The notes beneath the pieces were generated by a model, which saw nothing but the letters and a program-made list of their open reading frames with translations, had not been told where the DNA came from and ran no database searches. A program made the translations under genes and the position numbers. Below are positions 23,202 through 43,274 of a stretch of 64,000 nt of DNA, one piece after another; the first letter of the stretch is position 1; each line of letters starts with the position of its first letter. The stretch covers positions 64,001 to 128,000 of the forward strand of contig CAVYNY010000016.1 of assembly GCA_963769935.1 (NCBI GenBank), read 5' to 3'. Source of the stretch: an uncultured delta proteobacterium (GTDB taxonomy: Bacteria; Desulfobacterota; Desulfobacteria; Desulfobacterales; JAFDCJ01).

Positions 23202-24455
23202 TCAGCGAATTATATTCTTGATGGTTTGAATTATATTATCTAAAGGCACTGAGATTTGTTCTTTATTTTCCATATTCCGCAGTATCGCCGTTCTCTCCTT
23301 CAACTCGTTGTCCCCCAGAATCATAACGTAGGAAGCGCCCAGCCGGTCGGCGCGCTTCATCTGGCTTTTAAGGCTGTTGTCGCTGAAATCCATCTCAACC
23401 CGAATACTTTCCAGGCCCAGCTTGCACATCCACTCAAATGCCCGCGTTTGACTTTTAGCGCCCAAGGCCGCCACAAAAAGGTCCGGCTTTTGGATCGGCA
23501 CCGATGCATTCAATGCGGCCAGTTCCGCCAGTCTGTCAAATCCGACGGCAAAACCGGTGGCCGGGATATCGGGCCCCCCCAGTTCTTTTACCAGATTGTC
23601 GTAGCGGCCGCCGCCGGCCACTGCGCTCTGGGCACCCAGGGAAGTTGTCTGAATCTCAAAAGCGGTGCGGGTGTAGTAATCGAGCCCGCGCACCAGCTGT
23701 CCGTCAATGACATAGGTCACATCAAGCCGGGTCAACGCTTGCCGAACCTGATCGAAATCAGTCCGGCACTCCCCACACAGGTGGTCCAGGATGGAAGGCG
23801 CACCCGTTAAAGCCTCCCGGCAGGAGGGAACCTTACAGTCCAGAACCCGCAACGGATTGCGGTCCCGCCGGCGAATACAGTCCGGACACAGCCGATCGCC
23901 GACAGTCAGCAAAAAGTCACTCAGGGCCTTTTTGAAATGCGGCCGGCATTGGGGGCAGCCCAGGGAATTGATGCGGGCTTCAACATCCTGCAGTTTCAGC
24001 CGCGTGCAAAGTGTCACCAATAAATATATCAACTGGACATCCACCAGACCGGATTGCACACCGAAAATCTCGGCATCGATCTGATAAAATTGCCGGTACC
24101 TGCCCTTCTGCGGTCGTTCGCGCCGAAACATCGGCCCAATCATGTAGAATTTTTTAACCGGATCCTGATTATATAATTTGTGCTGGATATACGCGCGGCA
24201 AATCGAGGCGGTGGCCTCAGGTCTCAGCGTCACCAACTCCCCTCCGCGGTCGGGAAAAGTATACATCTCCTTTTCGACAATATCCGTATCTTCGCCGATG
24301 CCGCGTTTAAAAAGTTCGGTGCGTTCCATGATCGGAATCCGAATCTCACTGAAGCCGAAATCTTCAAAAAGCTTTCGTGCGACCCTTTCGATCTCCTGCC
24401 AGAGTTCCACTTCACCGGGTAGGATATCCTTAAATCCTCGAATCAACTGTATCAT
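23202..24455 (-). CDS. hisS: Histidine--tRNA ligase
   Basis: [35 protein letters not shown]. Confidence 0.97.
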
Positions 24456-24546
24456 GCGAATCGTTTAAACCCCGCTGCCAAGAATATTTCAGTCTTCTTT
24501 TAGACCCTACGGCGATTTATCTAACAACGTGTTGCCAGAAACTTAA

Positions 24547-24703
24547 GGTTTCAGGTGTCAGCGGCGCCGCTGGCCTGAAAACCGGCCAGCTTGATCGATA
24601 TCCCAAACTTGTTTTAGAATGAGTCTAAAAAAATAGAAGGGGGCACAGGTGGTCAGGGATGTATTTTCTTTCTCCCGACATCCGATTCCTGAAACCTGAA
24701 ACC
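24547..24703. repeat. Inverted-repeat element, TTTCAGG/TGTCAG family
   Basis: ggtttcaggtgtcag ... cctgaaacctgaaacc. Same family at 39241, 43302, 52585 and 59351. Confidence 0.7.
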
Positions 24704-24838
24704 CATCCGTATCACGCCGACCCCCGAAGCGGGGTCTCCGCTCCGAATGGCTTGTCCAGGTTAGTTTAGCAATGCATAAGTTGGTATTATTAGCTCATTA
24801 AACAATTTAAAGTCAATATTAATATTTTCTTTTTAAAC

Positions 24839-24867
24839 TTGACACCTTAGGTGCTTTTGCTTATAAA
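24839..24867 (+). promoter_or_regulatory. Putative sigma-70 promoter of the P1 hydrolase/ABC/pan cluster
   Basis: TTGACA-17 nt-TATAAA, 33 nt upstream of ATG 24901. Confidence 0.6.
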
Positions 24868-24900
24868 AATCAATTTTATAGATCGAATGATCAGGAGCAA

Positions 24901-25908
24901 ATGTTGGCAAAGCCGGGCAAGCAAAATTCCCTAACGGATATCGAAGGGATTCTGGTTGGAAATTATACGGATCAGAAGGCGGTCAGCGGAGTGACGGTGG
25001 TCCTCTGCCCGCAAGGTGCTGTCGCCGGTGTGGATGTGAGAGGCTCTGCTCCGGGAACCAGAGAAACCGATGTGTTGGCCCCCAACAATCTGGTCGAGCA
25101 GGTTCAGGCTGTTGTTCTGGCCGGCGGCTCCGTTTTCGGGCTGTCGGCCTGCGATGGGGTGACCCGCTGGCTGGCCGAAAAAGGTTATGGTTTTCCGCTC
25201 GATCAGGGATATGTCGCGCCGATCGTACCGGCCGCCGTGCTTTACGATTTAGGTCGCGGCGCGCAATTTATTCCACCTATCAACGGGGATTGGGGCCGTT
25301 TCGCCTGTGAAGGGGCCGGCGATTTTCCGGTGGAAATGGGTTGTGTCGGTGCCGGAACCGGCGCATTGGCCGGCAGCATAAAAGGCGGACTGGGTACGGC
25401 CAGTCTTTTGTTGGACAGCGGAATCACCGTAGCGGTCGTAGTGGCCGTCAACCCGGACGGCTCGGTTGTCAATCCTGCCGACGGCCGTCCCTGGGAAATC
25501 GGCCGGGAAATCAATGGAGAATTCGGTCGGCAGGGAAAACGTGCCGTGAGGTTGCCGCCCAAACCGACGCCCGGTCCCATCCGAAATACCACAATCGGAG
25601 TCGTGGCAACGGATGCCGTTCTTACCAAGCCGCAGGCCCAAAAGGTCGCTCAGATGGCCCACGACGGTATGGCCAGGGCAATTCGCCCGGCCCACACCAT
25701 GTTTGACGGCGACACCGTATTCTGCCTGGCCACCGGCAAGCAGGAACTGCCCCCAGCACCCGGAATTTTTGCCGTGCCCAAAGCGCAAAGCCTGAATGAA
25801 ATCGGCCATGCCGCCGCCGACTGTATGTCCCGAGCAATTATCCACGCCATTTTGCATGCGCATTCTATTGCGGGCATGATCGCATTTTGCGATCTGGACG
25901 ATTTTTAG
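24901..25908 (+). CDS. P1/S58 (DmpA-like) self-processing Ntn hydrolase, Thr-nucleophile (NTT) subtype
   Basis: VDVRGSAPGTRET, LAGGSVFGL, VGAGTGA, KGGLG, RNTTIGVVATDA, AHDGMARAIRPAHTMFDGD. Confidence 0.9.
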   Translation: MLAKPGKQNSLTDIEGILVGNYTDQKAVSGVTVVLCPQGAVAGVDVRGSAPGTRETDVLAPNNLVEQVQAVVLAGGSVFGLSACDGVTRWLAEKGYGFPLDQGYVAPIVPAAVLYDLGRGAQFIPPINGDWGRFACEGAGDFPVEMGCVGAGTGALAGSIKGGLGTASLLLDSGITVAVVVAVNPDGSVVNPADGRPWEIGREINGEFGRQGKRAVRLPPKPTPGPIRNTTIGVVATDAVLTKPQAQKVAQMAHDGMARAIRPAHTMFDGDTVFCLATGKQELPPAPGIFAVPKAQSLNEIGHAAADCMSRAIIHAILHAHSIAGMIAFCDLDDF

Positions 25909-25952
25909 AGCCTTAAATTTAATATCTTTGGCTTTTATAAAAAAAATATTTT

Positions 25953-26072
25953 CACCACGAAAACACGAAATCTTGAAAGCACGAAATTTAACTTGCCTTT
26001 TTTTCGTGTTTTCGCCCGCCCCGTTAAACCTTTTTTCTCTGTTTAACCGGGGTCCTTTCGTGCTTTCGTGAT
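25953..26072. repeat. Inverted-repeat element, CACGAAA family
   Basis: cacgaaaacacgaaa...cacgaaa versus tttcgtgttttcg...tttcgtgctttcgtg. Second copy at 51626. Confidence 0.75.
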
Positions 26073-26143
26073 TAAGTTCTTTTTTGGTTCGGACTTGTCC
26101 GGATTAAGAAGAAGTTGACAAATTCAGAAAAGGAGATTGAATA

Positions 26144-27640
26144 ATGAAAAAGTTTCTATTGATTTCGATGGTACTGGCCCTCATGGTTCCAGTGCAGGGG
26201 TCTTTGGCCGCCACCCCGCAAAAAGGCGGGAATCTGGTTCTGTGTGTGGGCGACGAACCACCGGGACTGGATCCCACCGCCAGCGCCTCCGCCGCCATTG
26301 ATCGGGTGGTTTACGCCAACATTATGGAGGGTCTGGTCAAGGTCGACAGCAACGGCCGATTTGTGCCGGGTTTGGCCACCAAATGGGACGTATCGCCCGA
26401 CGGCAAGGTTTACACCTTCCACCTGCGCCAAGGCGTCACCTTCCACAACGGGGAAGCTTTCAATGCCCAGGTGGCCAAGTGGAACCTGGAACGCGGTGCG
26501 GCCGAAGGCACCAAGAACGCCCATCCGGAATTTTTCCGTGTTATTGAAACCATCGCAGCCCCCGACAACAACACGCTGAAAGTAACCCTCAAGGATGTGG
26601 ATGCCCTGTTCATCGTCCATATGGCCGAGGGGGATGCGGTCATGCTGCCGATGAAGGGCTTTGAAAACATGGCTGCCGAGCCGATCGGGACCGGGCCGTT
26701 CAAGTTCGCGAAATGGACGCGGGGCGACAGCGTGGAAATGGTCAGGTACGATAAATACTGGAACCCGGCCCTGCCCTATCTGGACAAGGTGACCTACCGA
26801 TTTATCAAGGACCCCAGCGCCCAGGTTGCGGCCTTGAAGGCCGGCGACGTCGATCTGATAGGCTGGCTCTTTGCCCCCGAACTGGCGACGGACATCGCCA
26901 GGGATAAGCGCTTCAAGGTGCTCGCCGGTGCTTCCACTTCCGAAGTTATCATGTCCACCAACAACAAGGCCAAACCTTTCGACAACAAGCTCGTACGCCA
27001 GGCCATGGCCTACGCCATCGATCGGCAGACCGTCATTGATTTGGTCATGGCCGGCTACGGCACCGTCATCGGATCGCACTGGCCGCCCATCACTCCCTAT
27101 TACAAGGATCTGACCGGCCTGTTCCCCTATAACCCGGAAAAAGCCAAAAAGCTGCTGGCCGAGGCCGGCTACCCGAACGGTTTTGAAGCGACCATCAAGC
27201 TGCCGGCCATCTATCCTTATAGCCAGCGCGCCGGCGAGGTGATCGCCGACATGCTGGGTCAAGTCGGCATCAAACTCAAGATCGAGATCGTGGAATGGGG
27301 CTACTGGCTGGATCGCATATTTAAGCAGCATGATTACCAGCTGTCCATGATCGGCCACGCGGAAGCCTGGGACATCGGCATTTATGCCAACCCGAACTAC
27401 TACTTCCAGTATGACTCCCAGGAGTTCCGCGATGCCTATGCCAAGGCGCTGAAGGCCCCCAACGAGGCGGAAAAAGCCAAGTGGTTCGGCCGCTGCCAGG
27501 AGATCGTGGCGGAAGACGCCGTCAACGGATTTCTCTTCCTGTCGCCGGCGCTTTCAGCCATGAAGGTGGAACTGATGGGCTGGTGGAAGAATTATCCCAC
27601 CATCGCCATGGATTGCACACAAGTATGGTGGCAAAAGTAA
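26144..27640 (+). CDS. Peptide/nickel-type ABC transporter substrate-binding protein (SBP family 5)
   Basis: Signal peptide, LDP, YTFHLRQGVTFHNGE, PIGTGPF, VRQAMAYAIDR. Confidence 0.92.
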   Translation: MKKFLLISMVLALMVPVQGSLAATPQKGGNLVLCVGDEPPGLDPTASASAAIDRVVYANIMEGLVKVDSNGRFVPGLATKWDVSPDGKVYTFHLRQGVTFHNGEAFNAQVAKWNLERGAAEGTKNAHPEFFRVIETIAAPDNNTLKVTLKDVDALFIVHMAEGDAVMLPMKGFENMAAEPIGTGPFKFAKWTRGDSVEMVRYDKYWNPALPYLDKVTYRFIKDPSAQVAALKAGDVDLIGWLFAPELATDIARDKRFKVLAGASTSEVIMSTNNKAKPFDNKLVRQAMAYAIDRQTVIDLVMAGYGTVIGSHWPPITPYYKDLTGLFPYNPEKAKKLLAEAGYPNGFEATIKLPAIYPYSQRAGEVIADMLGQVGIKLKIEIVEWGYWLDRIFKQHDYQLSMIGHAEAWDIGIYANPNYYFQYDSQEFRDAYAKALKAPNEAEKAKWFGRCQEIVAEDAVNGFLFLSPALSAMKVELMGWWKNYPTIAMDCTQVWWQK

Positions 27641-27685
27641 AGCCTGCTGACTTCTCAAATCGGTAAAAACCGGTATAAAAACGAA

Positions 27686-27715
27686 CGGGCAGTCCCGGTT
27701 CGCGGGGGCTGCCCG
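27686..27715 (+). terminator. GC-rich hairpin after the SBP gene (terminator or mRNA stabiliser)
   Basis: CGGGCAGTCCC...GGGGCTGCCCG. Confidence 0.55.
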
Positions 27716-27726
27716 CTTTATCTGCC

Positions 27727-28671
27727 ATGCTGCGTTATTTTACAAAAAAGCTGATCACCCTGGTTCTGCTGCTTTTTCTGGTCTCGCTCACGGTGTTCTC
27801 GGTTCTCTTTGTCCTGCCCGGCGATCCGGCCCAGATCATACTCGGGATCAACGCCACGCCCGAGTCGCTGGCCAATCTGCGCGCCGAGCTGGGCCTGGAC
27901 AAATCTTTCATGGGTCAATACGCGGACTGGATCGGAGATCTCCTGCAGGGACGGAGCCAACAGTCCATCCATTACAAGATGCCGGTGTATGCGTTGATTC
28001 TTGACAGCCTGGCCGTGACCGGCCCGATGGCCCTTCTGGCCATGGTGTTCGCCCTGGCTATTTCACTGCCTTTGGGTATCTACGCCGCCCGGCATCAAAA
28101 TCAAACCGGCGACGTAACGGTCATGGTTTGCACCCAGCTCGGCCTGGCCACACCGGAATTCTGGTTTGGAATCCTGCTGACGCTGCTGTTCTCGGTCCAG
28201 TTGGGCTGGTTCTCGGCCGGCGGCTTCCCGGGCTGGAGCAAAGATTTCTGGGGATCCCTCAAAGCGCTGCTGCTGCCGGCCTTCGCCCTGGGTGTCATCC
28301 GCGCCTCCATCCTGACTCGGCTCACCCGCTCCTCCATGCTCGAAGTGCTGCGCGAGGATTACGTCCGCACGGCGCGGGCCAAGGGCCTCAGGGAACGGAC
28401 GGTGGTTTACGTGCATGCTCTGCGCAATGCTCTGGTTCCGGTTCTGACCATTATGGGGCTCCAACTCGGGCAGCTTTTGGCCGGCGCCATCATCATCGAA
28501 AACGTCTTCTTCCTGCCTGGACTGGGAAGACTGGTGTTCAACGCCATCGGGCAGCGCGACCTGCCGGTGGTTCGGGACATCGTGCTGTTTATGGCCGCAG
28601 CCGTCGTGCTGGTGAATTTTATAGTGGATATGGCCTACGCCTGGCTGGATCCCAGAATCCGGATAGAGTAA
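27727..28671 (+). CDS. Peptide ABC transporter permease (DppB-like)
   Basis: LPGDPA, EDYVRTARAKGL, HALRNAL. Confidence 0.92.
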   Translation: MLRYFTKKLITLVLLLFLVSLTVFSVLFVLPGDPAQIILGINATPESLANLRAELGLDKSFMGQYADWIGDLLQGRSQQSIHYKMPVYALILDSLAVTGPMALLAMVFALAISLPLGIYAARHQNQTGDVTVMVCTQLGLATPEFWFGILLTLLFSVQLGWFSAGGFPGWSKDFWGSLKALLLPAFALGVIRASILTRLTRSSMLEVLREDYVRTARAKGLRERTVVYVHALRNALVPVLTIMGLQLGQLLAGAIIIENVFFLPGLGRLVFNAIGQRDLPVVRDIVLFMAAAVVLVNFIVDMAYAWLDPRIRIE

Positions 28672-28858
28672 TTGAAAATTGAAGATTGTATATTGAATAT
28701 TTGAGGCCCGCCTGCGGCGGATCAGTTTTAAAATAACCGCAGTTGAAGGCCTCCTCTATAGGAACGGGACAAAGGTTCCGGAGGGCTTGCGGCCGGATGT
28801 CATGTTTAACTTTAGGATCTGTGCCCATCCGTGTTCATCCGTGTCCGAATATATTAAA

Positions 28859-29683
28859 ATGAAGCGATTTTTTAATAATAAAAACTTTACCGTCGGGTTT
28901 GTCCTGTCGGCGATAGTGGTCGTCGCGGCTCTGATCAGTCTGCTCTGGACGCCCTATGACGCCAATAAGATGAATGCCCCGCAGCGCCTGAAAGGACCTT
29001 CCTGGCAACATCCGCTGGGCACGGACCAATACGGCCGCGACACGCTCTCCCGGGTGATGGTGGGCGCGGGCAATTCGATCATCGTCGGACTGGTGACCGT
29101 AGCCATCGGACTGAGCGCCGGGGTCCTGCTGGGATTGGCGGCCGCCTACTACGGTAAGCTGGTGGACGAATCCATCATGCGGTTTTCGGACTTGCTGTTC
29201 GGTTTTCCGGCGGTGCTCACGGCGATTCTGATAACATCCATTATGGGACCTTCGATGATCAATGCCATGCTGGCCATTGGAATTTTCTACATCCCGGTGT
29301 TTGCCCGCCTGACCCGGGCCGTATCCCTGACCATCTGGGAGCGGGAGTTTATTGCCGCCGCCCGCGCCAGCGGTATCAGCGAATGGGCCATCACCTGGCG
29401 CCATGTGCTGCCCAATATTTTATCGACCCTGATAATCCAGGGGACCATTCAGTTTGCCGTGGCGATTCTGGCCGAGGCCGGCCTCAGTTACCTGGGGCTG
29501 GGCACTCAGCCGCCGAACGCCTCCTGGGGCCGCATGCTCAACGAGGCCCAGACCTATATGTCTTTGGCGCCCTGGATGGCAATTTTTCCGGGCCTGTCCA
29601 TCGCCTGGGCCGTACTGGGATTTAATTTGCTGGGAGATGGATTGAGGGATACATTGGACCCGAGGATGGTAAAGGTGCGATAG
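28859..29683 (+). CDS. Peptide ABC transporter permease (DppC-like)
   Basis: HPLGTDQYGRD, RHVLPN, NLLGDGLRDTLDPR. ATG 28859. Confidence 0.92.
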   Translation: MKRFFNNKNFTVGFVLSAIVVVAALISLLWTPYDANKMNAPQRLKGPSWQHPLGTDQYGRDTLSRVMVGAGNSIIVGLVTVAIGLSAGVLLGLAAAYYGKLVDESIMRFSDLLFGFPAVLTAILITSIMGPSMINAMLAIGIFYIPVFARLTRAVSLTIWEREFIAAARASGISEWAITWRHVLPNILSTLIIQGTIQFAVAILAEAGLSYLGLGTQPPNASWGRMLNEAQTYMSLAPWMAIFPGLSIAWAVLGFNLLGDGLRDTLDPRMVKVR

Positions 29684-29756
29684 TGTTGTGGCCCACAATT
29701 AGCTTAAAAAAACTGGAACTGGATAGATAAACTATAATTGCGTCTTTGAATATAAA

Positions 29757-29981
29757 AAATTCCAAGTTCCAAAAAAACAAATAACAAACAATATCCAAAT
29801 TCCAAGCTCCAATGACCCAAACAGGTTTTGAATTGCAGCAATATGCTTGCTGGGGTCTGAACTCAGGCAAAATGAAGTTTATCAGAAATTATCGAATAGA
29901 CATGATTTACTGTAATCTGAAATTTGTTTCGAATTTGAGTTTTGAGATTTATTTGAAATTTGGAATTTGAGATTTGGAATT
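29757..29981. repeat. Inverted-repeat element, AAATTCC/GGAATTT family
   Basis: aaattccaagttccaaa...caaattccaag versus atttggaatttgagatttggaattt. Second copy at 34590. Confidence 0.7.
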
Positions 29982-30020
29982 TTTTTCAGATTTCGTGAAC
30001 CGGCTTAGGAGTAAGGTTAC

Positions 30021-31307
30021 ATGACAACTACTAAAGACATTATCGATAAGGTACTAAATGAAATTGATGCCGACGAGCTGATCAGATTAACCTCTGATCT
30101 AGTTAAGATTAATTCCGTCTGGGATCCTGTCGCCGGGACCAGTGAGCAGCCGGCGGCCGATTATGTTTTCAAATGGGCACAGGAGCATGGATTTGAGGCG
30201 CAGCTGGAAGAAGTTGCACCCGCTCGACCGAACGTAATTGTGCTTTGGACCGCCGGTCCCGGCAACCGTCGGCTGATGTTTGAAGGACACACCGATGTGG
30301 TCACCCCGGGGGATGTTGCGGCCTGGAAGTATGATCCTTTCGGCGCTGAGATTGTGGGTCGTAAAATGTACGGTCGCGGCACCAACGATACCAAAGGCAA
30401 CCTGGCAGCCATGCTGATTGCCATGGCGGCGCTTAAGGACTCCGGTGTGCAGCTTTCCGGAACCGTTGTCGGCGGGGTGCTGTGCGATGAAGAAGATCAA
30501 ATGCTGGGAGTCAGAAATTTCATCGATAGGGGCCATGCCGACGCGGTTACCGCCGCCGTCATCTGTGAGCCCCAGGATGGTTTGATCTGCACCTCCCAAA
30601 AAGGGTCGCTGCGGGCCCGGTTTACCATCAAGGGCCGCATGAGTCACGGTGCCATGCCCCTTTCCGGCTTGAACACCGCTCCGGCCGTCGCCCATTTGAT
30701 CAACGCTTTGCACGATCTGGAGCGCCGGGCCGTGCGGCAGCCGGGACAGGACGAGCATCTGGGGTGGCCCAGCTTCACTCCTACGGTCATCCTGGCACCG
30801 TCCGCCGGTGCGCCCCAGCTCAATGTCATGCCCGGCGAGACCCATTTACTGGTGGATATTCGGACCGTTCCCGGACAGTCCCATCCGGACATCCTGAAAG
30901 ACCTGGCAAACATGACGCTTGAAATTGAACAGCAGGTTCGCCGACATTACGTTGATTATGACAAACTGCTCCATATTGACCGCGAGCATGACCTGCATGT
31001 CACGCTGGAAATTTTAACCGACCGTCCCTGCACGCTGACGGATCGTAATGATCCGGCAGTTCTGGCAGCCGATTGGGCCACCCGGCAATTGAGTAAAAAA
31101 ACGCCGGTCTACGGCGGCGTTCCCGGCGCCACGGACGGCACCTTTCTGTGGGCTTTAAAAAATATTCCTATCGTCACCATGGGGGCCGGCGACCGTCAGG
31201 TTCCGCACCAGCTCGATGAGTGGGTCAATCTGGATCAACTCGTCGAAACCGCCAGGATATATGCGCTGACGGCGCTAAAATACCTGTGGCCGGGGGACAG
31301 CCATTGA
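30021..31307 (+). CDS. M20 family metallo-amidohydrolase (ArgE/DapE-like)
   Basis: FEGHTDVV, GRGTNDTKG, DEE, ICEP, HQLDE metal ligands. Confidence 0.9.
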   Translation: MTTTKDIIDKVLNEIDADELIRLTSDLVKINSVWDPVAGTSEQPAADYVFKWAQEHGFEAQLEEVAPARPNVIVLWTAGPGNRRLMFEGHTDVVTPGDVAAWKYDPFGAEIVGRKMYGRGTNDTKGNLAAMLIAMAALKDSGVQLSGTVVGGVLCDEEDQMLGVRNFIDRGHADAVTAAVICEPQDGLICTSQKGSLRARFTIKGRMSHGAMPLSGLNTAPAVAHLINALHDLERRAVRQPGQDEHLGWPSFTPTVILAPSAGAPQLNVMPGETHLLVDIRTVPGQSHPDILKDLANMTLEIEQQVRRHYVDYDKLLHIDREHDLHVTLEILTDRPCTLTDRNDPAVLAADWATRQLSKKTPVYGGVPGATDGTFLWALKNIPIVTMGAGDRQVPHQLDEWVNLDQLVETARIYALTALKYLWPGDSH

Positions 31308-31414
31308 ATATTTTCGATTGAATATTGAAAATTTAAGGTATTCTGTCGATTAATTAAAATAGACGGAGCGCAGCGACATCCATAAATATTCAATTTTCAA
31401 TCTTCAATTTTCAT
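31303..31414. repeat. MITE-like element, ATTGAAT/ATTCAAT family
   Basis: Shares gaatattgaaaatttaaggta and ggagc..agcgac.tcca.aaatattcaat with 54794-54928. Relatives at 28670 and 33411. Confidence 0.8.
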
Positions 31415-31425
31415 TTTTTTGATAA

Positions 31426-32433
31426 ATGGGCAGTAAACTACTAGAAATAACGGACCTGTCCGTCCATTTCCACACCCCCGAAGGTATTGCCCGGGCGGTG
31501 GACGGGGTCAGTTTCCACCTGGACACGGGTGAGACCATCGGTCTGGTGGGTGAATCAGGTTGCGGCAAGAGCGTCACTTCCCTGAGCATCCTGGGATTGA
31601 TTCCGTCGCCGCCGGGAAAGATTGAAGGCGGTAAAATCAGGTTTGCCGGCCAAAATTTACTGGATTGCAACAACGAACAGCTCCGCAAAATTCGGGGGCA
31701 AAAAATCTCGATGATATTTCAGGAGCCGATGACCTCCCTCAACCCGGTGCTGCCAATCGGCCGCCAGGTGGCGGAACCGCTGATGGTCCATCAGGGGCTT
31801 AGCCGGACCGCAGCATTTGAGAAGGCCGCCCGATGGCTGGACTACGTTAAGATACCGGCCGCCGCCAAACGGCTGAATGACTACCCGCATCAGCTATCGG
31901 GCGGCATGCGCCAGCGGGTCATGATCGCCATGGCCATGGTCTGTGGCCCGAAGCTTTTGATTGCCGATGAACCCACAACCGCTTTGGATGTCACGATCCA
32001 GGCCCAGATCCTGTCCCTGATGCTGCGCCTCAAGGAAGAACTGGAAATGTCACTGCTTTTGATCACCCACGATCTGGGAGTGGTCGCCCAGATGGCAGCC
32101 AGGGTGGTCGTCATGTATGCCGGCGAAGTTGTCGAGGAGGCCGGCGTAGCCGATATATTCGACCGGCCATTTCATCCCTACACCCAGGGACTTCTCAAAT
32201 CCATGCCCCGGATCGGGGTCCGGATGGGCGGCCGCAAACAGCGCCTGAACGAAATCCCCGGTATCGTACCGGTGCTGACGGAGCTGATTACGGGATGCCG
32301 GTTTACCGATCGCTGTCCCCATGCCTTTGAGCTGTGCCGTCAGAGCCATCCGCAGCTGGTGAAAGTTGGGGAAAAACACCAGGCGCGCTGCTGGCTGGCG
32401 GCATACCCGGAACGGAGAAAAAGCGATGCCTGA
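31426..32433 (+). CDS. Peptide ABC ATP-binding protein (DppD/OppD-like)
   Basis: [26 protein letters not shown]-terminal Cys motif. Confidence 0.93.
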
Positions 32434-33415
32434 AGCACCGTTGCTCAACGTCGTTGATCTGGTCAAACGGTTTCCCCTGGGGGGCGGGATTTTCTCAAAA
32501 CCGCGCGCCTGGGTCAAAGCGGTCGAAGGGGTTTCTTTTTCCGTCTCACGGGGTGAAAGCTTCGGCCTGGTAGGTGAGTCGGGTTGCGGCAAAACAACCC
32601 TTGGACGCCTGATTCTGAGGCTCATCGAGCCGACCGGCGGCCGGGTCGAGTTTGACGGCCGCGATATTGTTTCCTTGAACCGCTCGGAAATGAGCACCCT
32701 GCGCCAGCGAATGCAGATTATTTTCCAGGATCCCTACTCGAGCCTTGATCCACGCATGAAGGTGGTGGATATTGTCACCGAGCCGCTGCGAGCGAGCCGA
32801 AAGCTTTCCCCGCATAAACGAAAGGATGTGGCGGCCGAAATGCTGCAAAAAGTCGGTCTGCGCAGGGCGGACCTGGACAAATATCCGCACGAGTTTTCCG
32901 GCGGCCAGCGACAGCGCATCGGAATTGCGCGTTCGTTGTGTGTCCGTCCGGAATTGATCGTGGCCGATGAACCGGTAAGTGCCTTAGACGTCTCCATTCA
33001 GGCCCAGGTAATCAACCTGATGGAGGATTTGAAGGCTGAATTCAACCTTTCCTATGTTTTTATCTCCCATGACCTGAGCGTGGTCGAATATATCTGTGAC
33101 CGAATTGCGGTGATGTATCTGGGGGGTATCGTTGAGCTGGCCTCCACCAGAGACTTTAGTGTTTGCCCGCGTCACCCGTACACCGAAGCGCTCCTGAAAT
33201 CGGTTCCCTTGCCGGATCCCAATCGCAGAACCGAACCGTTTGCCATGGAAGGCGATGTCCCTAATCCGATTGATCCGCCCACGGGATGTCCGTTTCATCC
33301 AAGATGTCTGTACAAATTTGATCGGTGTCCCCGCGAGAAACCGCCCCTGATTGAAGCCGCCCCGGCTCATTTCGTAGCCTGCTGGCTGCACGGGGGCACG
33401 GGATTAGGGAATTGA
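32426..33415 (+). CDS. Peptide ABC ATP-binding protein (DppF/OppF-like)
   Basis: [27 protein letters not shown] 32426 overlaps the previous stop. Confidence 0.93.
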
Positions 33416-33567
33416 AGATTGAATATTTTCCATAGTCGATGAATATTCGATTTAAATCAAAGGCCTCCAATATTGACACCCAAAATCTTAAAGGACCTAA
33501 ATGAACAATTGAAAATACAAACGACAGGATGCCTTCAATATTCAATTGACAATTTTCAATTTTCAAT
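33411..33567. repeat. MITE-like element, ATTGAAT/ATTCAAT family
   Basis: attgaagattgaatatt ... ttcaatattcaattgacaattttcaattttcaat. Confidence 0.7.
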
Positions 33568-33601
33568 CGAATAGTTCGTCATTTCAAAGAGGAGAAAATC
33601 A

Positions 33602-34519
33602 ATGAAAGTTGCAGTCGTCGGCGCCGGTGCCATGGGCAGCCTCTTTGGTGCCCTGCTGGCTGAAGCCGGCCAGGAAGTCTGGCTCTATGATGTGTGGGTT
33701 GCACACGTCCAGGCCGTCAAACAAAATGGATTACAGATCGAACGGGAAGGCCAAACGCGCACGGTTCGCATCAACGCCACCACGGATCCGGCTGAAATCG
33801 GCCGCGCGGACCTGGTGATCATATTCGTTAAATCGACCCAGACCAAAGCCGCAGCTGAAACCGCGCGCGCGATTGCCGGCTCTGAAGGTACGGTCATGAC
33901 CCTGCAAAACGGGATGGGCAACGCCGATACCATCGCCCGCAGCATCGCGGCGGATCGCATACTGGCAGGCACCACATCCCACGGGGCCACCATGCTGGCT
34001 GCCGGCCGTATCCGGCATGCCGGTATCGGCGCCACCACCATCGGCAGCTGGGCCGACACCGATCAGGGACGGCTGCGCGCTGAGAAGCTCGCCGATTTTT
34101 TCAACAGTGCCGGCATCGAAGCGCAAGCCGTGGCCGACGTACGCAGCGTGGTCTGGAACAAGCTATTGATCAACATCGGCATTAATGCCGTCACGGCGCT
34201 GTGCGGGATCAAAAACGGCCAGTTGCTGGATCTGGCAACCACCCGGGAATTGAGTCGCGGCGCGGTTGAAGAAGCCATGGCCATCGCCCGCGCCCAGCAT
34301 ATCGGGATTAAAGACGACGCCGTGAACATTGTTTTTAAGGTGGCCGAAGCGACCGGCGCCAATCGATCGTCCATGGGACAGGATGTGGACAACAAACGCC
34401 AGACGGAAATTGCGGCCATCAACGGATTCATCGTGCGGGAGGCCCACCGGCTGGGACTGGAAGCACCGATTAATTTTGCGTTGACGGCGCTGATCGAGAC
34501 GCTGCAATCGCATTATTAG
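33602..34519 (+). CDS. panE: 2-dehydropantoate 2-reductase
   Basis: GAGAMG, VKS, LQNGMG, WNKLLIN, NRSSMGQD, TEIAAING. Confidence 0.9.
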   Translation: MKVAVVGAGAMGSLFGALLAEAGQEVWLYDVWVAHVQAVKQNGLQIEREGQTRTVRINATTDPAEIGRADLVIIFVKSTQTKAAAETARAIAGSEGTVMTLQNGMGNADTIARSIAADRILAGTTSHGATMLAAGRIRHAGIGATTIGSWADTDQGRLRAEKLADFFNSAGIEAQAVADVRSVVWNKLLINIGINAVTALCGIKNGQLLDLATTRELSRGAVEEAMAIARAQHIGIKDDAVNIVFKVAEATGANRSSMGQDVDNKRQTEIAAINGFIVREAHRLGLEAPINFALTALIETLQSHY

Positions 34520-34589
34520 CGAGGTATAGTCAAAACGGGAAAAAGGCTATCCAATGCAGAGGTGGAGTTATGGAGCAATGAAGTATTGG

Positions 34590-34744
34590 AAATTCCAAAT
34601 AACAAATACCAAATAACAAATAATTTCCAATGTCCAAAATTTCAAATTCCAAACCTTTGTGCAAATTTGAAGAAGCGAGCCGATTTGTTTTGATCATTGA
34701 AATTTCGAATTTATTTGGAATTTGGTGCTTGGAATTTGGGATTT
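34590..34744. repeat. Inverted-repeat element, AAATTCC/GGAATTT family
   Basis: aaattccaaataacaaataccaaataacaaa versus atttggaatttggtgcttggaatttgggattt. Confidence 0.72.
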
Positions 34745-34792
34745 TGTGTAGTGGATAATGTTTTTAACTCGCTAAAGTGAAGGAGAATCAAA

Positions 34793-35644
34793 ATGGGTGA
34801 TAAGAAAACAACAGTCCTCGATGTCCAGCAGGCCAAGAATGAGGGACGCAAACTTACCATGCTGACTGCTTATGATTATCCGCTGGGACTGATGGCCGCG
34901 GAATCCGGCGTCGACATCGTCCTGGTCGGCGACTCACTGGGCATGGTGGTCATGGGCCTGCAGGGAACGGTTGAGGTCACCATGGAGAATATGATCCATC
35001 ACATCAAAGCCGTCGTCCGGGGATGCAAAGGACCTCTGATCGTCGGCGACATGCCGTTTATGAGCTACAACACCTCCATCCGGGAGGCGATTATCAATGC
35101 CGGCCGTCTGATGAAGGAAGGCGGCTGTGATGTCGTCAAGCTGGAAGGCGGGGTTGATTTCGCGCTGACGATTGAAGCAATCGTCAAAGCCGGAATTCCC
35201 GTGCAGGGTCATATCGGTCTGACACCGCAGACCGCTTCCGCGTTGGGCGGCTTTAAAATGCAAGGCAAGGATGCCGCGGCTGCCAAACAGATCATCGATG
35301 ATGCCAAGGCCCTGGAAGATGCCGGCGTATTCTCGATGATCCTGGAAGCCGTGCCGGCTCCGCTCGGCAAGCTGGTCTCCGAAGCGGTCAAGGTTCCGGT
35401 CATCGGCATCGGGGCCGGACCGGATGTAGACGGCCAGGTGCTGGTGTTTCATGACGTCGTGGGCCTATTTGACCGGTTTGTGCCGAAGTTTGTCAAACAG
35501 TACACCAATGTCAGAAAGATAATCGTAGCGGCGTTAAAGGAATATAACCAGGACGTTCTTGAAGGACAATTCCCGGGACCGGAACATTCCTTTAAAATGC
35601 CGGATGAAGCCCTGGAAAAGCTGAAAAAGATGATCGAAGGATAA
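34793..35644 (+). CDS. panB: 3-methyl-2-oxobutanoate hydroxymethyltransferase
   Basis: MLTAYDY, LVGDSLGM, VKLEGG, GHIGLTPQ, IGIGAG, DGQVLV. Confidence 0.96.
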   Translation: MGDKKTTVLDVQQAKNEGRKLTMLTAYDYPLGLMAAESGVDIVLVGDSLGMVVMGLQGTVEVTMENMIHHIKAVVRGCKGPLIVGDMPFMSYNTSIREAIINAGRLMKEGGCDVVKLEGGVDFALTIEAIVKAGIPVQGHIGLTPQTASALGGFKMQGKDAAAAKQIIDDAKALEDAGVFSMILEAVPAPLGKLVSEAVKVPVIGIGAGPDVDGQVLVFHDVVGLFDRFVPKFVKQYTNVRKIIVAALKEYNQDVLEGQFPGPEHSFKMPDEALEKLKKMIEG

Positions 35645-35908
35645 AGAAGTGGAGTGGTACGGCCAGGTTCCTTTTGATCTTGACTCGCAGCCCATCACCG
35701 TGTTATGCCTCCAGCGTCGATGAAGTCAAAGCCAGGGCCGAATTAGAGAACAGATGCAAAAGCTCAAGGCTATTCGGTTTCAGATGCCAAGACCCTAAGT
35801 CCTCCCCGCTGGACCCACCCGCGGGGAGCCAGCCGCCGGATGCCCATCCAATCAGGAAAATAGTCGTCCCTGGGCCGCTCAATGTAAGGATTGCTGTAAA
35901 GGGATTCA

Positions 35909-36775
35909 ATGTCGTTCCTCGTCATTATGTCATTGCTCAATGGTCTGACACTGGCCGCACTGCTGTTCATCACGGCCAGCGGACTGACACTGTCTTTTAG
36001 CCTGATGCGGGTTGTCAACCTGAGCCACGGTGCGCTTTATATGGCGGGCGGCTTCATCGGCTTGTCCGTGATCAGCCTCACCGGAAGCTGGCTCCTGGCC
36101 TTGTTTGCGGGCGGCAGTGTCATGGCTGTCGTGGCTCTGCTGGAAGAAAAACACCTACTGCGATGGGCCCGCGGCAATGACCTGATAGAAACCCTGATCT
36201 CGCTGTCGGTGGCCATCATCATCGGTGACCTGGTTCTGGTCATCTGGGGGGGGTACCCCAAAACCATTGAAATCCCCGCGATGCTGAGCGGCATCTGGAC
36301 CATACCGGTGATCGATATGGTTTATCCCATATTTCGGATTTTTATGCTGGGATTGGCCATTGTAATCATCGTTGCCCTGTGGTTTTTCCTTAAAAAAACC
36401 AACCTTGGGATCACCATCCGGGCCGGTGTCGATAATTTCGAAATGGTGTCCGCTTTAGGAATCAATGTCCGCCGGCTGTTTACGATCGTTTTTTGTCTTT
36501 CCGGATTTTTGGCCGGTGTTGCCGGCGTCGTGGGCGGAACGTTCATGATGCTCGTGGTGGGTGAAGACTGGCGCATTCTGACTTTAACACTGATTGTGAT
36601 CATTATCGGCGGTATGGGCAGTTTGGGGGGCACCATCGTGGGTGCGCTGATAACCGGTCTGATCTACAGTTTTGCAACGGCCTATATTCCTGAATTTTCG
36701 TTGTTCATCCTGTTTTTGCCCGTGGCCATGATCCTCTCCATCAGGCCCCATGGGCTGTTTGGTAAAAAGGTCTGA
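35909..36775 (+). CDS. Branched-chain amino acid-type ABC permease (LivH-like)
   Basis: VVNLSHG, LGITIRA, IIGGMGSLGG, RPHGLFG. Confidence 0.9.
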   Translation: MSFLVIMSLLNGLTLAALLFITASGLTLSFSLMRVVNLSHGALYMAGGFIGLSVISLTGSWLLALFAGGSVMAVVALLEEKHLLRWARGNDLIETLISLSVAIIIGDLVLVIWGGYPKTIEIPAMLSGIWTIPVIDMVYPIFRIFMLGLAIVIIVALWFFLKKTNLGITIRAGVDNFEMVSALGINVRRLFTIVFCLSGFLAGVAGVVGGTFMMLVVGEDWRILTLTLIVIIIGGMGSLGGTIVGALITGLIYSFATAYIPEFSLFILFLPVAMILSIRPHGLFGKKV

Positions 36776-36779
36776 TCCG

Positions 36780-37793
36780 ATGAAATCCTCCCGGGTGCCT
36801 AAAACAGTCGTACTGCTGTCGTCCCTGGCAATATTGGTCGCTGTGCCATGGATCGCTTCGGACTATTTTGTCATGATGTGTATCCGCGTCATGTATTTCG
36901 GAATGCTGACCCTGAGCCTGTGCTTTCTGGCAGGCGAACTGGGTGTCGTTTCGTTGATGCAGGCTTCGTTTTTCGGTATATCGGGGTACTTCATCGCCAT
37001 TTTGCAGACCCGCTATCAGATCGCATTTCCAATTCCCCCCTTGGTGGGCATCGGGGTGGCGGTCTTGTTTGCCGCTGTGACAGGGCTTCTGGTGATTCGC
37101 GTTCGGGGCATATACTTTTTGATGCTCACCCTTGTGCTCGGCCAACTCGTCTGGGCGCTGGCGAGTCAATGGGCATCGGTCACCCGAGGCGACTCGGGCA
37201 TTACCGACATATTCGCTCCGATGATATTCGGGATCTCAACCGAAAAGTCAAAAGGGGCATTCTATTTCTTTGAGCTGTTTTTCTTTTGCGGAGTGATTTG
37301 CTTTCTGGCGGCATTGAAACGTTCCCCCTTCGGGTTGATGCTGCGCGGCATTCGCGAAAGTGAGAGCCGGATGGTGATGCTGGGTTACCCGGTAGCGCTT
37401 CTGCGCTACATGGCGTTTATCTTTGCCGCGTTCGTGGCCGCCATGGGGGGTGTTTTCTTTGCCTACTTTACCGGCCTGATCAATCCCCACTCGTTCTCAT
37501 TAACCACCAACGTCGAAACCCTGCTTTCGGCAATTTTGGGCGGCATTCAGACCTTGTTCGGGGCGATCCTGGGAACCGCGATTCTCAAAATTTTGGATCT
37601 GGTTTTGAGCGGTATTACCCGGCGCTATTTGCTGATTATGGGGATCTTGTTTCTGATTACGATTATGTTCGCGCCCAAGGGGGCTGCCGGGGCGTTAAAG
37701 CGCCTCTGGGATAGTGTTGCATCACGAGTTTTGGGAAGCGCGGCGCCCGGCAAGGGTGCCGCCGACGATTCGTTTCTGGAAGACACAAAATAG
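36780..37793 (+). CDS. Branched-chain amino acid-type ABC permease (LivM-like)
   Basis: GIYFLMLTL, SPFGLMLRGIRESE, ILGG. ATG 36780. Confidence 0.9.
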   Translation: MKSSRVPKTVVLLSSLAILVAVPWIASDYFVMMCIRVMYFGMLTLSLCFLAGELGVVSLMQASFFGISGYFIAILQTRYQIAFPIPPLVGIGVAVLFAAVTGLLVIRVRGIYFLMLTLVLGQLVWALASQWASVTRGDSGITDIFAPMIFGISTEKSKGAFYFFELFFFCGVICFLAALKRSPFGLMLRGIRESESRMVMLGYPVALLRYMAFIFAAFVAAMGGVFFAYFTGLINPHSFSLTTNVETLLSAILGGIQTLFGAILGTAILKILDLVLSGITRRYLLIMGILFLITIMFAPKGAAGALKRLWDSVASRVLGSAAPGKGAADDSFLEDTK

Positions 37794-37808
37794 GAAAGGA
37801 GAGAGAAG

Positions 37809-39153
37809 ATGAAAAGAAAAAATTGGATAATTGCAATCACGGTCGTTTTCTTTTTTAGCTGTGGCCTTAGCGGGCAATGCGACGGCACTGGATGAAATCC
37901 GCATCGGCACCATCGGCCCGCTCACCGGTTGGGCGACCATTTTCGGCGAAGGCGTTCTCAACGGCGCCAAATTGGCCCTTGAGGAACACAACAATGAATT
38001 CAACGGCATCCCGATCAAGGTTTTTAGCGAGGACACCAAGGCCGATGTTGAAGTGATGCGGGCCAAGCTGGATTCTCTCAAAAACCGCGACAAAGTCCAT
38101 TTGATCATCGGGCCTTCGCTGGGGCACGAAGGTATGGCGGCGGTGGATTGGGGCGCGCGCAATCCCGAGGTTCCCATGCTGATCGGCTATTCGGCCCCGG
38201 AAGACATTACCATGCGCAAGGCAACCTTCAGTGTCATCCGCCCCGGCTGGACCGGCGCCCAGGTGATTTTCAATTTCGGCCAGTACTGCGCCAAAGACCT
38301 GGGTTATAAAAAGGTCATCATCGTCGGGCAGGATTACTCTTACCCCTGGGACCAGGCCGCCGGTTTCATCAGAGGATTTTTGGAAAACGGCGGGGAAAAA
38401 GTCGAACGTATCTGGCATCCGGTGGAAGCCGTTGATTTCAGTTCGATCATGGCAAAGCTGATGGGCATGTCCAAGGAGTACGATGCGGTCTTGAACAACT
38501 CCGGCGGTGCCCAGGTAGTTGCCTTTTTCAAACAGTGGAAACAGTTCGGACTGGATAAAATGTATCCCCAGATTCTGGGGCAGGCCAACGTCCCGATCGT
38601 GTCGATGCTCTCCGAACTCGGGGATTCGGCTTTGGGAGTTTACTCTTCACTGCACTATTACGACGGCAATCCTTCAGCGGCCAACCAGAAATTCCGCGCA
38701 AACTTCAAAAAGAAATACGGCCACTACCCGGACGTAATCGCTGTCCAGGGTTACGATGCCGTCCATGTCGCCTTTAAAGCCATGCAGGCCATTGACGGGC
38801 AGGTGGATGATCCCAAGAAATTCATCACCGCCCTGCGCCAGGTGAAGATGAGTGCCGACGAATCTCCGCGCGGTCCGTTTTATTTCGATAAATACGCCAA
38901 CCCGGTGCAGAATATCTACATCAAGAAGGTGGTCAAAAAAGACGGCCAGCTGATGAACGAGGCCGTCAAGACCTATAAGAATGTTTCCCAGTTCGGCCCC
39001 TATGCTGATATTGCCGACAAGTATATGGCGGCTCCCGCCACCACCCGCGACTACCCGCCCGGAGACAAGGCCTCCTATTTCAAGGAGATCGAAAAATACT
39101 TCGGCAAGGACTATGTCGAAAAGCTGGAGAAGAACCACGGCTGGGTGGATTAA
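37809..39153 (+). CDS. Liv-type ABC substrate-binding protein, +1 frameshift in a T-tract within the signal peptide
   Basis: Likely true start ATG 37809 after a GGAGAG RBS. Deleting one T at 37851-37856 gives MKRKNWIIAITVVFFLAVALAGNATA-LDEIRIG. Body has IGPLTG and DYSYPW. Confidence 0.82.
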
Positions 39154-39240
39154 CCCTAATGCTGCCGAAACAACTTGGCAAAGTGTTTATATCTGTAGTT
39201 CTTTAGGGGCTTATTTCTCATAGCATGTTGTCAGAAAATG

Positions 39241-39304
39241 AGTTTCAGGTGTCAGTGTTCAGGTTTCAGGATCTGGCCATTCGCTTTGCTGACACCTGAA
39301 ACCT
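39241..39304. repeat. Inverted-repeat element, TTTCAGG/TGTCAG family
   Basis: gtttcaggtgtcag...ctgacacctgaaac, a perfect 14-bp inverted repeat. Confidence 0.8.
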
Positions 39305-39476
39305 AGACTTTGTGTCACGATATAACCAGCGCTCTTGCTCGCCCGAAGGGGCCACTTTTCCCGACTAAGTCTCGGGAATGGCGTAGGTTCAATCAAGTGA
39401 AGTTGGCTGGCAAAAATTCAGGTACTCGCATTTTATCGTATTTCCGAAACGTTGAGCTTTCAGAGGCTTCGATCAC

Positions 39477-40253
39477 ATGCATGCGCTGGTTTTAAAGAAC
39501 GTATCCAAATCCTTCGGCGGCATCGTTGCTGTCAGTAAGGTCGACCTCACCGTCACAATGGGGGAGAGCCGTGCGTTGATCGGGCCCAATGGGGCCGGCA
39601 AGTCGACCCTTTTTAATTTGGTCACAGGGGAAATCCCACTGGACGAGGGGCGGATCCTGCTGTTCGGCAAAGACCTTACCCGCGAACCCGTGCAGAAACG
39701 CATTGCCTCGCACCTGGGCAGGACCTATCAGATTTCCAACCTGTTCTCCCAGTTGACGGTCCAGGAGAACCTGTTTTTGGCTTCCTGGCAGACACGGTCA
39801 AGAAAAGCCTCTTTAGTCGCCGCGCTGTTTCGTTCCTGGCGCAAATTTGAGAATCAGCGCCGCCACGTCGCCGAGATTGCGCATCGGGTCGGACTGCAGG
39901 ACAAGCTCGACACAAAGGTCGATGAGCTCTCGCACGGAGAACACCGCCAGCTGGAGTTGGGTCTTACACTGGCCCATGAGCCCAGGATACTGCTGTTGGA
40001 CGAACCCATGGCGGGGCTTTCCGCAGCCGAGCGGGGATTTATGACCGAGCTGATCATGAGCCTGAAGTCAGAGATTACCGTTGTGATCATCGAGCACGAC
40101 ATCCATGTGGCCTTCAGCATTGCCGACCAGGTATCCGTGCTGCACCATGGCGCCATCATTGCAGAAGGAAGTCCGAAGCAGATCGAGAACAATCGAGAGG
40201 TTCAGCAGATCTATACCTTAAGCCGGCATTCAAAAGATTCCCATCATGTCTGA
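39477..40253 (+). CDS. ABC ATP-binding protein (LivG-like)
   Basis: [23 protein letters not shown]. Confidence 0.92.
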
Positions 40254-42381: not shown

Positions 42382-42440
42382 TAGTTATGAACTTCTCATT
42401 AACATCCGGTTTTGCCGGACATAATATTTAGGAGATTGAC

Positions 42441-43274
42441 ATGGCGCGTTTCACCCGACAACAAATTTTAGATCGACTCAACGCGAAAATTCGCAGCGGA
42501 CAGCCCATCGTCGGCGGCGGTGCCGGCACCGGACTGTCGGCCAAATGTGAGGAGGCCGGCGGCATCGACCTGATCGTTATCTACAATTCAGGCCGCTACC
42601 GCATGGCCGGCCGGGGATCGCTTGCCGGGCTTATGCCTTACGGCAACGCCAACGACATCGTGATGGAGATGGCCCGTGAAGTGCTGCCGGTCACCCGCAA
42701 CACCCCTGTGCTGGCCGGCGTCAACGGCACCGACCCCTTTTGCATCTTCGACCACTTTCTCGACCAACTCAAGGCCGTGGGGTTTGCCGGGGTGCAGAAT
42801 TTCCCTACGGTGGGACTCATCGACGGCACTTTCCGGCAGAACCTGGAGGAAACCGGGATGGGCTTCGGGCTGGAGGTGGACATGATCCGGTTGGCACACG
42901 CCAAAGACATGTTGACGACGCCCTATGTGTTCTCCGAAGACGATGCCATTGCCATGACCGAGGCCGGAGCCGATGTCATCGTCTGCCATATGGGGCTGAC
43001 CACCGGCGGCAACATCGGGGCCGACACGGCCAAGACTCTGGACGATTGTGCCGATTATATCAACGCCTGGAGCACAGCAGCGCTGAAAAAGCGCCGGGAC
43101 GTGATCATCCTGTGCCATGGAGGTCCGATCTCCATGCCCGCGGATGCCGAATACGTCCTGAAGCGCTGTCCGGAATGCAACGGATTTTACGGGGCCTCCT
43201 CGATGGAGCGGCTGCCTACCGAGAAGGCCCTCACGGCCCAAACCAAAGAATTTCTCAACATCAAGCGCAGCTAA
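42441..43274 (+). CDS. TIM-barrel 'PEP hydrolase-like' protein (homologous to the Tm-1 C-terminal domain)
   Basis: [53 protein letters not shown]. Confidence 0.88.

Follow-up and report, generated by a model that had tools for sequence, protein, structure and literature searches.

A conserved nine-gene row of Desulfobacterales with a predicted role in pantetheine import, coenzyme A salvage and vitamin B5 breakdown

We analysed a 64,000-nucleotide stretch of DNA (henceforth ‘the window’; positions 64,001 to 128,000 of the forward strand of contig CAVYNY010000016.1, GenBank assembly GCA_963769935.1) from an uncultured delta proteobacterium of the order Desulfobacterales (GTDB lineage JAFDCJ01), and in it a row of nine open reading frames on the + strand, from 24901 to 35644, which encode in this order an S58 hydrolase, a substrate-binding protein (SBP), two permeases, an M20 amidase, two ATPases, PanE and PanB. 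A sequence-only reading of the window had described nine co-directional genes behind a good sigma-70 promoter, with the M20 gene embedded between the permease and ATPase genes and panE-panB at the end, and we confirmed the reading frames, their families and order, and the promoter. The latter (+ strand) consists of TTGACA (24839-24844) and TATAAA (24862-24867) separated by 17 nt, matches the consensus at 11 of 12 positions and is followed by an AGGAG ribosome site (24893-24897, +); it was missed by a stock promoter scanner, which demands a T at the last position. Promoters with at least 10 of 12 matches occur upstream of the S58 gene in 10 of 47 relatives, and upstream of the genes for the SBP, M20, PanE and PanB in 3/48, 2/76, 0/35 and 2/42, respectively. 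An 11-bp GC-rich hairpin, terminator-like or mRNA-stabilising, lies after the SBP gene (27686..27715, +), and most spacers in the row are long (86-337 nt); all except the one between the SBP and first permease genes carry dispersed repeats with 21-139 BLAST matches elsewhere in the genome. In relatives the junctions can mostly be short (for example, at most 30 nt between the M20 and ATPase genes in 38 of 63), and this, together with the gene order, suggests that the nine genes are likely co-transcribed. The Rfam pan motif had no match in window positions 24300-36000 or in seven loci. The repeats in the spacers (window 24456-34792) are AT-rich.

The first gene (24901..25908, +; PF03576) encodes a ThnT-like S58/P1 N-terminal nucleophile (Ntn) hydrolase, predicted to hydrolyse pantetheine, which has no signal peptide and carries an NTT motif at residues 229-231. 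In a search of the PDB its closest solved relative was ThnT of thienamycin biosynthesis (3TM1, 3S3U, 4IHE), matched over nearly its full length with E 6.5e-75 (256 bits, compared to at most 177 for NylC or DmpA/BapA), and the DmpA/BapA aminopeptidases were far off (E 1e-9 to 1e-5). The two proteins share the S58/DOM fold, and Thr230 aligns with the ThnT nucleophile, the residue that was exchanged for Cys or Ala in the uncleaved ThnT structures; T230 and T231 are invariant in 14 of 14 aligned rows and NTT is present in 63 of 69 distinct S58 rows of at least 60% identity. In contrast to ThnT, the S58 protein lies in a transport and metabolic row and not in an antibiotic cluster. ThnT is described as cleaving the pantetheinyl group to cysteamine (PMC6097109, in excerpt) and, in the excerpt of PMC13602198, as the sole known microbial pantetheine hydrolase. 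An apparent S58-SBP fusion in genome G056 proved to be an artefact of a run of N. The genome of the window (G000, henceforth ‘own genome’) also holds a second, DmpA-like S58 gene (L019:826-13946; G000:C18), in a different family-5 ATP-binding cassette (ABC) cluster with two M20 genes, an amidase, a nitrilase-family gene and a GntR regulator.

The second gene (26144..27640, +; PF00496) encodes a family-5 ABC SBP with a signal peptide and a hydrophobic N-terminus; its predicted ligand is pantetheine/pantethine or pantothenate. It scores below every named NCBIfam cut-off, including the Dpp, Opp, Gsi and Nik equivalogs, and matches DppA only weakly at the level of residues. The ligands of its relatives in the PDB are opines, glutathione or dipeptides. 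Profile searches assigned the remaining importer genes to DppB-like (27727..28671, +) and DppC-like (28859..29683, +) permeases and to DppD-like (31426..32433, +) and DppF-like (32426..33415, +) ATPases, the last of which overlaps the gene before it. Between permeases and ATPases lies the gene for an M20 (ArgE/DapE-family) metallo-amidase (30021..31307, +), a candidate pantothenase that would cleave pantothenate to pantoate and beta-alanine. Databases label it a desuccinylase or deacylase; it lies only just above the cut-off of TIGR01910, a broad subfamily model, and passes no DapE or ArgE equivalog cut-off. Its metal ligands are intact, with H90, D123, E157, E158, E183 and H396 invariant in 13 of 13 rows.

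The row ends with panE (33602..34519, +) and panB (34793..35644, +), whose products score above the cut-offs of TIGR00745 (PanE/ApbA ketopantoate reductase) and TIGR00222 (ketopantoate hydroxymethyltransferase) and are predicted here to work backwards, PanE oxidising pantoate and PanB splitting ketopantoate to 2-ketoisovalerate and methylene-tetrahydrofolate. Both genes are under purifying selection: dN/dS against six relatives was 0.05-0.10 for panB and 0.11-0.26 for panE, and in four pairs of coaBC-less genomes 0.05-0.08 for panB, 0.15-0.22 for panE and 0.09-0.23 for hisS, these being rough values (pS 0.41-0.73) that average over time before coaBC was lost. In a tree of 57 PanB rows all 26 cluster-labelled PanBs fell into one clade (support 100/100), which also takes in 11 PanBs of other carriers and two from the panC-positive genomes G025 and G093. 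PDB alignments place Asp30 of PanE at the end of strand 2, where an acidic residue is linked to NAD use. Of 46 distinct rows with 55% identity or more, 43 have this Asp; it was discarded as proof of an oxidative PanE, being also present in the biosynthetic-looking ilvD-TRAP operon of G039 (TRAP, tripartite ATP-independent periplasmic importer). The own genome has two more panB genes and three more full-length panE genes; their neighbourhoods are unrelated, and panC is in none of them. One panB paralogue (L014:9842-13241; G000:C20) is followed by a 315-residue protein that belongs to no Pfam or NCBIfam family and by a class I/II aminotransferase, and the other, divergent one (L015:1930-10587; G000:C35) adjoins an IclR regulator, an aldo-keto reductase and a sugar-type ABC importer. 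Cluster-type panB genes relocated off the row lie next to an IclR regulator in G077, G099 and G093 (L261, L262 and L263), and the one in G093 also adjoins panG and a TRAP binding protein.

The row is real and conserved, and the linkage of its families, which the sequence-only reading had left to gene-neighbourhood analysis, is kept across Desulfobacterales. A close S58 gene (at least 64%) was found in 19 of 22 genomes of the genus and in 7 of 38 genomes of other families of the order, and wherever the contigs are long enough to tell, the genes follow one another in the same order, with hisS-aspS on one side and an M16 peptidase gene on the other. Among 80 loci chosen by M20 similarity (63-81%), mostly from Desulfobacterales, S58 was present in 47 and the SBP in 41 of the 51 with enough upstream DNA, panB in 33 and panE in 22 of the 46 with enough downstream DNA, and all nine genes in 16 of the 80, both flanks being long enough in 33 of the 80. 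Four loci (L128, L156, L157 and L189) have S58-M20-panE-panB and no importer, and two (L137 and L155) join this core to a Roseobacter-type version of the same SBP family. At L135, M20-panE-panB adjoins a type II kinase module; at L173, panB is followed by methylmalonate-semialdehyde dehydrogenase (MMSDH) and class III aminotransferase genes, whose orthologues in the own genome are 63% and 70% identical; and at L268 a 2-oxoacid:ferredoxin oxidoreductase gene faces panB. At L164, in the panC-bearing genome G092, the cluster is decaying, with a truncated SBP, a missing permease and a broken panB.

The surroundings of the row point to its history. The canonical pantoate locus of Desulfobacterales (TRAP-panB-panG or ilvD-TRAP-panE-panB, with panC and PanP elsewhere) occupies the same slot, flanked by hisS and the M16 peptidase gene, and encodes the same two reactions, and the panC-positive genomes G046 and G037 carry TRAP-panB-panG in the slot next to hisS; the row differs in that its PanB forms a separate clade, PanE replaces panG, S58-ABC-M20 has been added, and panC and PanP are lost. 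Probably a cassette for transport and hydrolysis was added to an ancestral pantoate operon, and the loss of panC and, in some lines, of coaX and coaBC came later. A pantoate-type TRAP importer inside the G006 cluster was considered as evidence of direction and set aside as a relic of the ancestral locus; its best PDB match is 4XEQ, a structure with bound pantoate. Pantoate is among the TRAP ligands listed in an excerpt of PMC5812351. The own genome keeps, despite the loss of panC, a stand-alone TRAP importer (L277:8253-11018; G000:C11:151252-154017) that is 84-91% identical to the one flanking panE/panB in relatives.

Genes for the synthesis of pantothenate and coenzyme A (CoA) were traced across genomes, with results given here as counts and with no p-value. 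We found panC in none of the 22 genomes of the genus, in 3 of the 7 genomes of other families that have a close S58, and in all 31 genomes of the order that lack one; among further M20-carrying genomes, for which 50 of the 80 M20 loci are represented in the panC and coaBC counts, 5 of 50 had it. Within the genus, coaX and coaBC are present in the same 5 of 22 genomes and missing from 17, and a type II kinase was found in 15 of 17 genus genomes that were searched for it. In three coaBC-less genomes with the type II kinase, G006, G012 and G020, a second importer is absent from its usual slot (the only slot searched), which hints that the importer of the row carries pantetheine rather than pantothenate. 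Five genomes (G052, G065, G071, G085 and G087) gave no match to the panC, coaBC or type II kinase queries, possibly owing to incomplete assembly. The absence of panD was rejected as informative: the gene occurs in 3 of 80 genomes, only two of them panC-positive, and the order mostly uses PanP, an aspartate decarboxylase. Its orthologues were confirmed in 17 of the 27 genomes that have panC but no cluster, whereas in 53 cluster-type genomes the PF00282 matches retrieved, which included some but not all of the weaker ones, yielded no PanP; in Desulfovibrio vulgaris an atypical PF00282 decarboxylase is stated to carry out aspartate decarboxylation (PMC10102598, in excerpt). The suggestion in the sequence-only reading that imported beta-alanyl peptides replace PanD thus falls away, panC being missing too and panD absent order-wide.

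The own genome (96.68% complete, 5.42% contamination) shows the same losses in full. A genome-wide search found no panC, panD, archaeal phosphopantothenate synthetase (PPS), coaX, type I coaA or coaBC, which extends to the whole genome the earlier remark that the cluster has no panC or panD. Of the canonical de novo pathway it therefore has PanB and a ketopantoate reductase and lacks PanC/PPS and CoaBC; coaD and coaE are present. An assembly gap behind the missing coaX and coaBC was excluded: the genes that flank them in genome G049 are contiguous in the own genome, so the losses are real, and 17 of 22 relatives share them. An archaeal-type bypass was likewise dismissed, there being no PPS. 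A type II pantothenate kinase-like gene lies about 47 kb beyond the window, below the cut-off of NF009842 (E 8e-47) and above that of PF03630 (Fumble). It is part of a row (L107:5914-15290; G000:C16:173913-183290) of a HAD hydrolase, this kinase, a metallo-beta-lactamase (MBL) phosphodiesterase, a second family-5 ABC importer and a metallophosphoesterase. This row recurs whole or nearly whole in nine other genomes, has coaX-coaBC in its slot in G004 and G009, and may be a module that takes up and trims CoA, dephospho-CoA or phosphopantetheine. The own genome has exactly the gene set of the pantetheine shunt Apn (PanK, CoaD and CoaE, no CoaBC), a genotype described as unable to make CoA from pantothenate, but differs from it in keeping PanB and PanE without PanC, a combination absent from the table of variants in PMC6593275. 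According to the excerpt of the same paper, no more than 12% of pantetheine auxotrophs have a known transporter.

Overall, the row probably serves to import pantetheine, both for CoA salvage and for catabolism through reversed PanE and PanB; the substrates and the direction of the two enzymes we infer throughout from what was observed of gene content, gene order, losses and selection. The ABC importer would bring in pantetheine, which in lineages without CoaBC, such as the own genome, would pass to the type II kinase; in other carriers the S58 enzyme would cut it to pantothenate for CoaX and CoaBC. CoaX is described as failing to phosphorylate pantetheine in Bacillus subtilis (PMC11487621, in excerpt), so carriers with CoaX only would need a hydrolase to use it. 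Surplus pantetheine would be broken down by S58, then by M20 into pantoate plus beta-alanine, and after that by PanE and PanB in reverse; 2-ketoisovalerate would go to 2-oxoacid:ferredoxin oxidoreductase and beta-alanine to an aminotransferase and an MMSDH that are encoded as a pair outside the row. Its likely sink is L200:7939-12301 (G000:C20:47938-52300), which encodes an MMSDH-like dehydrogenase, a class III aminotransferase and an AsnC regulator, with a uracil/allantoin-type permease and a nitrilase-family hydrolase near. We favour reversal because pantoate has no known route to CoA in genomes without CoaBC and PanC, and yet panB and panE are kept, and because the two amide hydrolases of the row match the two amide bonds of pantetheine; which hydrolase would cut which bond is assigned by analogy with a single enzyme, ThnT. 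The chain of import, hydrolysis and reversal proposed from sequence only is thus strengthened by the conserved linkage and by an own genome without coaX, coaA or coaBC, while its substrates and direction keep the standing of predictions. That proposal holds up in part; it had missed a salvage role, to which the loss of panC from most carriers points, as does the type II kinase of the own genome, which would use imported pantetheine directly. We also lean, somewhat less firmly, towards a wider conclusion, that a widespread lineage of sulfate reducers gave up de novo CoA synthesis and reversed its pantoate enzymes into a dedicated anaerobic pathway for the breakdown of pantetheine and vitamin B5.

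Relatives of the row in other phyla point to settings in which beta-alanine is freed from an amide and used, with a short-chain dehydrogenase/reductase (SDR) and an aldehyde dehydrogenase (ALDH) perhaps taking the place of PanE and PanB in aerobes. On Thermus plasmids the M20 (39-40%) and SBP (43-44%) genes lie with MMSDH and SDR genes. T. thermophilus JL-18 has, in addition, genes for a class III aminotransferase and a PucR regulator there, in the order PucR-MMSDH-aminotransferase-SDR-M20-SBP-permeases; the best matches of the Thermus M20 and SBP in the own genome are the window proteins. For the Thermus and Roseobacter-group SBPs that sit with M20 or S58, the window SBP is likewise the best own-genome match (44-46%). 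Nonomuraea has ABC-M20-S58-ALDH. In Roseobacter ponti and Qingshengfaniella, members of the SBP family are found together with an M20 that is less closely related, an SDR and P1/S58; in Qingshengfaniella the order is M20-ABC-ALDH-SDR-P1, with an M20 of the distant type (27%). The SBP relatives of Thioclava and Paracoccus lie without these partners, the Paracoccus one with two amidases, and in Deinococcus the M20 gene adjoins pyrimidine-degradation genes.

Several observations weigh against pantetheine import with reversed PanE and PanB. The S58 protein is about 48% identical to ThnT, nylon hydrolases are its next matches, and ThnT itself is said, in the excerpt of PMC6097109, to act only on carbapenem-bound pantetheinyl groups. 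CoaBC scores above cut-off in 34 of 50 further carriers, where pantothenate is needed. Since the row sits in the ancestral hisS-PreP pan slot, its linkage may be partly historical. The conserved core has no regulator, and its near-consensus promoter is what a housekeeping unit would have. Cluster-type panE and panB also occur in panC-positive backgrounds: G039 has ilvD-TRAP-panE-panB of cluster type, panC and no close S58, and G025, G039 and G056 yielded no PanB other than the cluster-type one. None of the 17 genomes with a cluster-type PanE has PanG, which is present in 16 of the 21 carriers that lack such a PanE, a mutual exclusion that fits either direction of PanE, and the dN/dS values, as said, reach back before the loss of coaBC. 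The loss counts come from non-independent kin and mostly from incomplete assemblies, which is why they carry no p-value. An aromatic-amino-acid-decarboxylase-like gene of the broad PF00282 family, putatively an aspartate decarboxylase of the DVU0867 type, is common in carriers; what is left of it in the own genome is an 80-residue remnant (L337; G000:C28:10966-11205), the gene being intact in many relatives.

Part of this evidence would also be accommodated if an S58-ABC-M20 salvage cassette had merely been inserted into the ancestral pantoate operon, PanE and PanB being kept for another job such as pantoate export or reduction of branched keto acids. The slot is indeed that of the ancestral pan locus, S58-ABC-M20 lies without adjoining panE or panB at L123, L126, L181 and L184 (which also counts against breakdown through PanE and PanB), the cluster decays in panC-positive G092, and the row lacks a regulator. 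Salvage only would, however, leave M20 without a role, since cleavage of pantothenate would oppose it, and the linkage of S58-M20-panE-panB outlasts the loss of the importer at the four loci named above; in three of the four coaBC-less pairs no other gene of the row is as well conserved as panB, and the own genome retains a TRAP importer of the panB-flanking type. We consider this explanation unlikely.

Slightly less credit still goes to the view that PanB and PanE make pantoate and that M20 and/or S58 stand in for PanC (and for CoaBC where coaBC is lost), with imported beta-alanyl compounds as partners in an ATP-independent condensation or acyl transfer. It would account for the near-perfect anti-correlation with panC, for a ketopantoate reductase (PanE or PanG) being kept in most carriers and for the housekeeping-like promoter; ilvD is retained inside the cluster at L130, which likewise speaks against breakdown, many carriers have the possible alternative aspartate decarboxylase, and the view may hold for carriers that keep coaBC. 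But amide formation without activation is uphill, M20 metallo-hydrolases are not known to form an acyl-enzyme, and the recurrent neighbours in the 80 loci include no ATP-dependent ligase. Carriers without CoaBC would require two uphill steps and cysteamine, PanP was lost together with panC, and the dedicated kinase/importer module that CoaBC-less carriers often hold points to dependence on an outside precursor. Finally, an ordinary unit for peptides or beta-alanyl peptides (Dpp-like importer, aminopeptidase, deacylase) that is a chance neighbour of panE-panB would suit the PDB relatives of the family-5 SBP and the database labels of M20, but is improbable given an S58 protein that is ThnT-like and far from DmpA/BapA, an SBP below all Dpp/Opp/Gsi cut-offs, an unexplained co-loss of panC and a panD absence that is order-wide.

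Breakdown through PanE and PanB would share with the pantothenate degradation of Pseudomonas fluorescens (pantothenase, EC 3.5.1.22) the step proposed for M20, pantothenate to pantoate and beta-alanine. In the classical P. fluorescens route pantoate is oxidised at C4 to dimethylmalate, whereas the row would oxidise it at C2 (PanE) and follow with a retro-aldol cleavage by PanB. Airas reportedly observed an acyl-enzyme for pantothenase, which would fit S58 rather than M20. The identity of the pantothenase protein is stated as unknown in an excerpt of PMC10393543, and the row supplies candidate genes for this orphan enzyme, for a bacterial pantetheinase of primary metabolism and for a pantetheine importer. 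If PanE and PanB run backwards, the presence of panB and panE would no longer show that a genome makes vitamin B5, and in anoxic communities these sulfate reducers would live partly as users of CoA fragments made by others; if instead M20 and/or S58 replace PanC, the row would provide a PanC-independent route to pantothenate, a still more surprising outcome. Salvage of CoA fragments and degradation of vitamin B5 are known in kind; what would be new is the proposed route, and among the search listings and the openings of abstracts consulted there was no report of PanE/PanB catabolism in reverse or of the nine-gene row. A term search of the main text of a paper on symbiotic relatives (PMC13548325) found no mention of pantothenate.

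The sequence-only reading had also tied the products to the Wood-Ljungdahl pathway; those genes lie about 25 kb off on the other strand, belong to backbone synteny and stand outside the unit. Further along (35909-43274), the window encodes an ABC importer of the Liv type with its second ATPase fused to a UPF0261 (Tm-1-like) domain, followed by a phosphoenolpyruvate (PEP)-hydrolase-like TIM barrel; in the relatives that were examined, panB is not followed by this importer.

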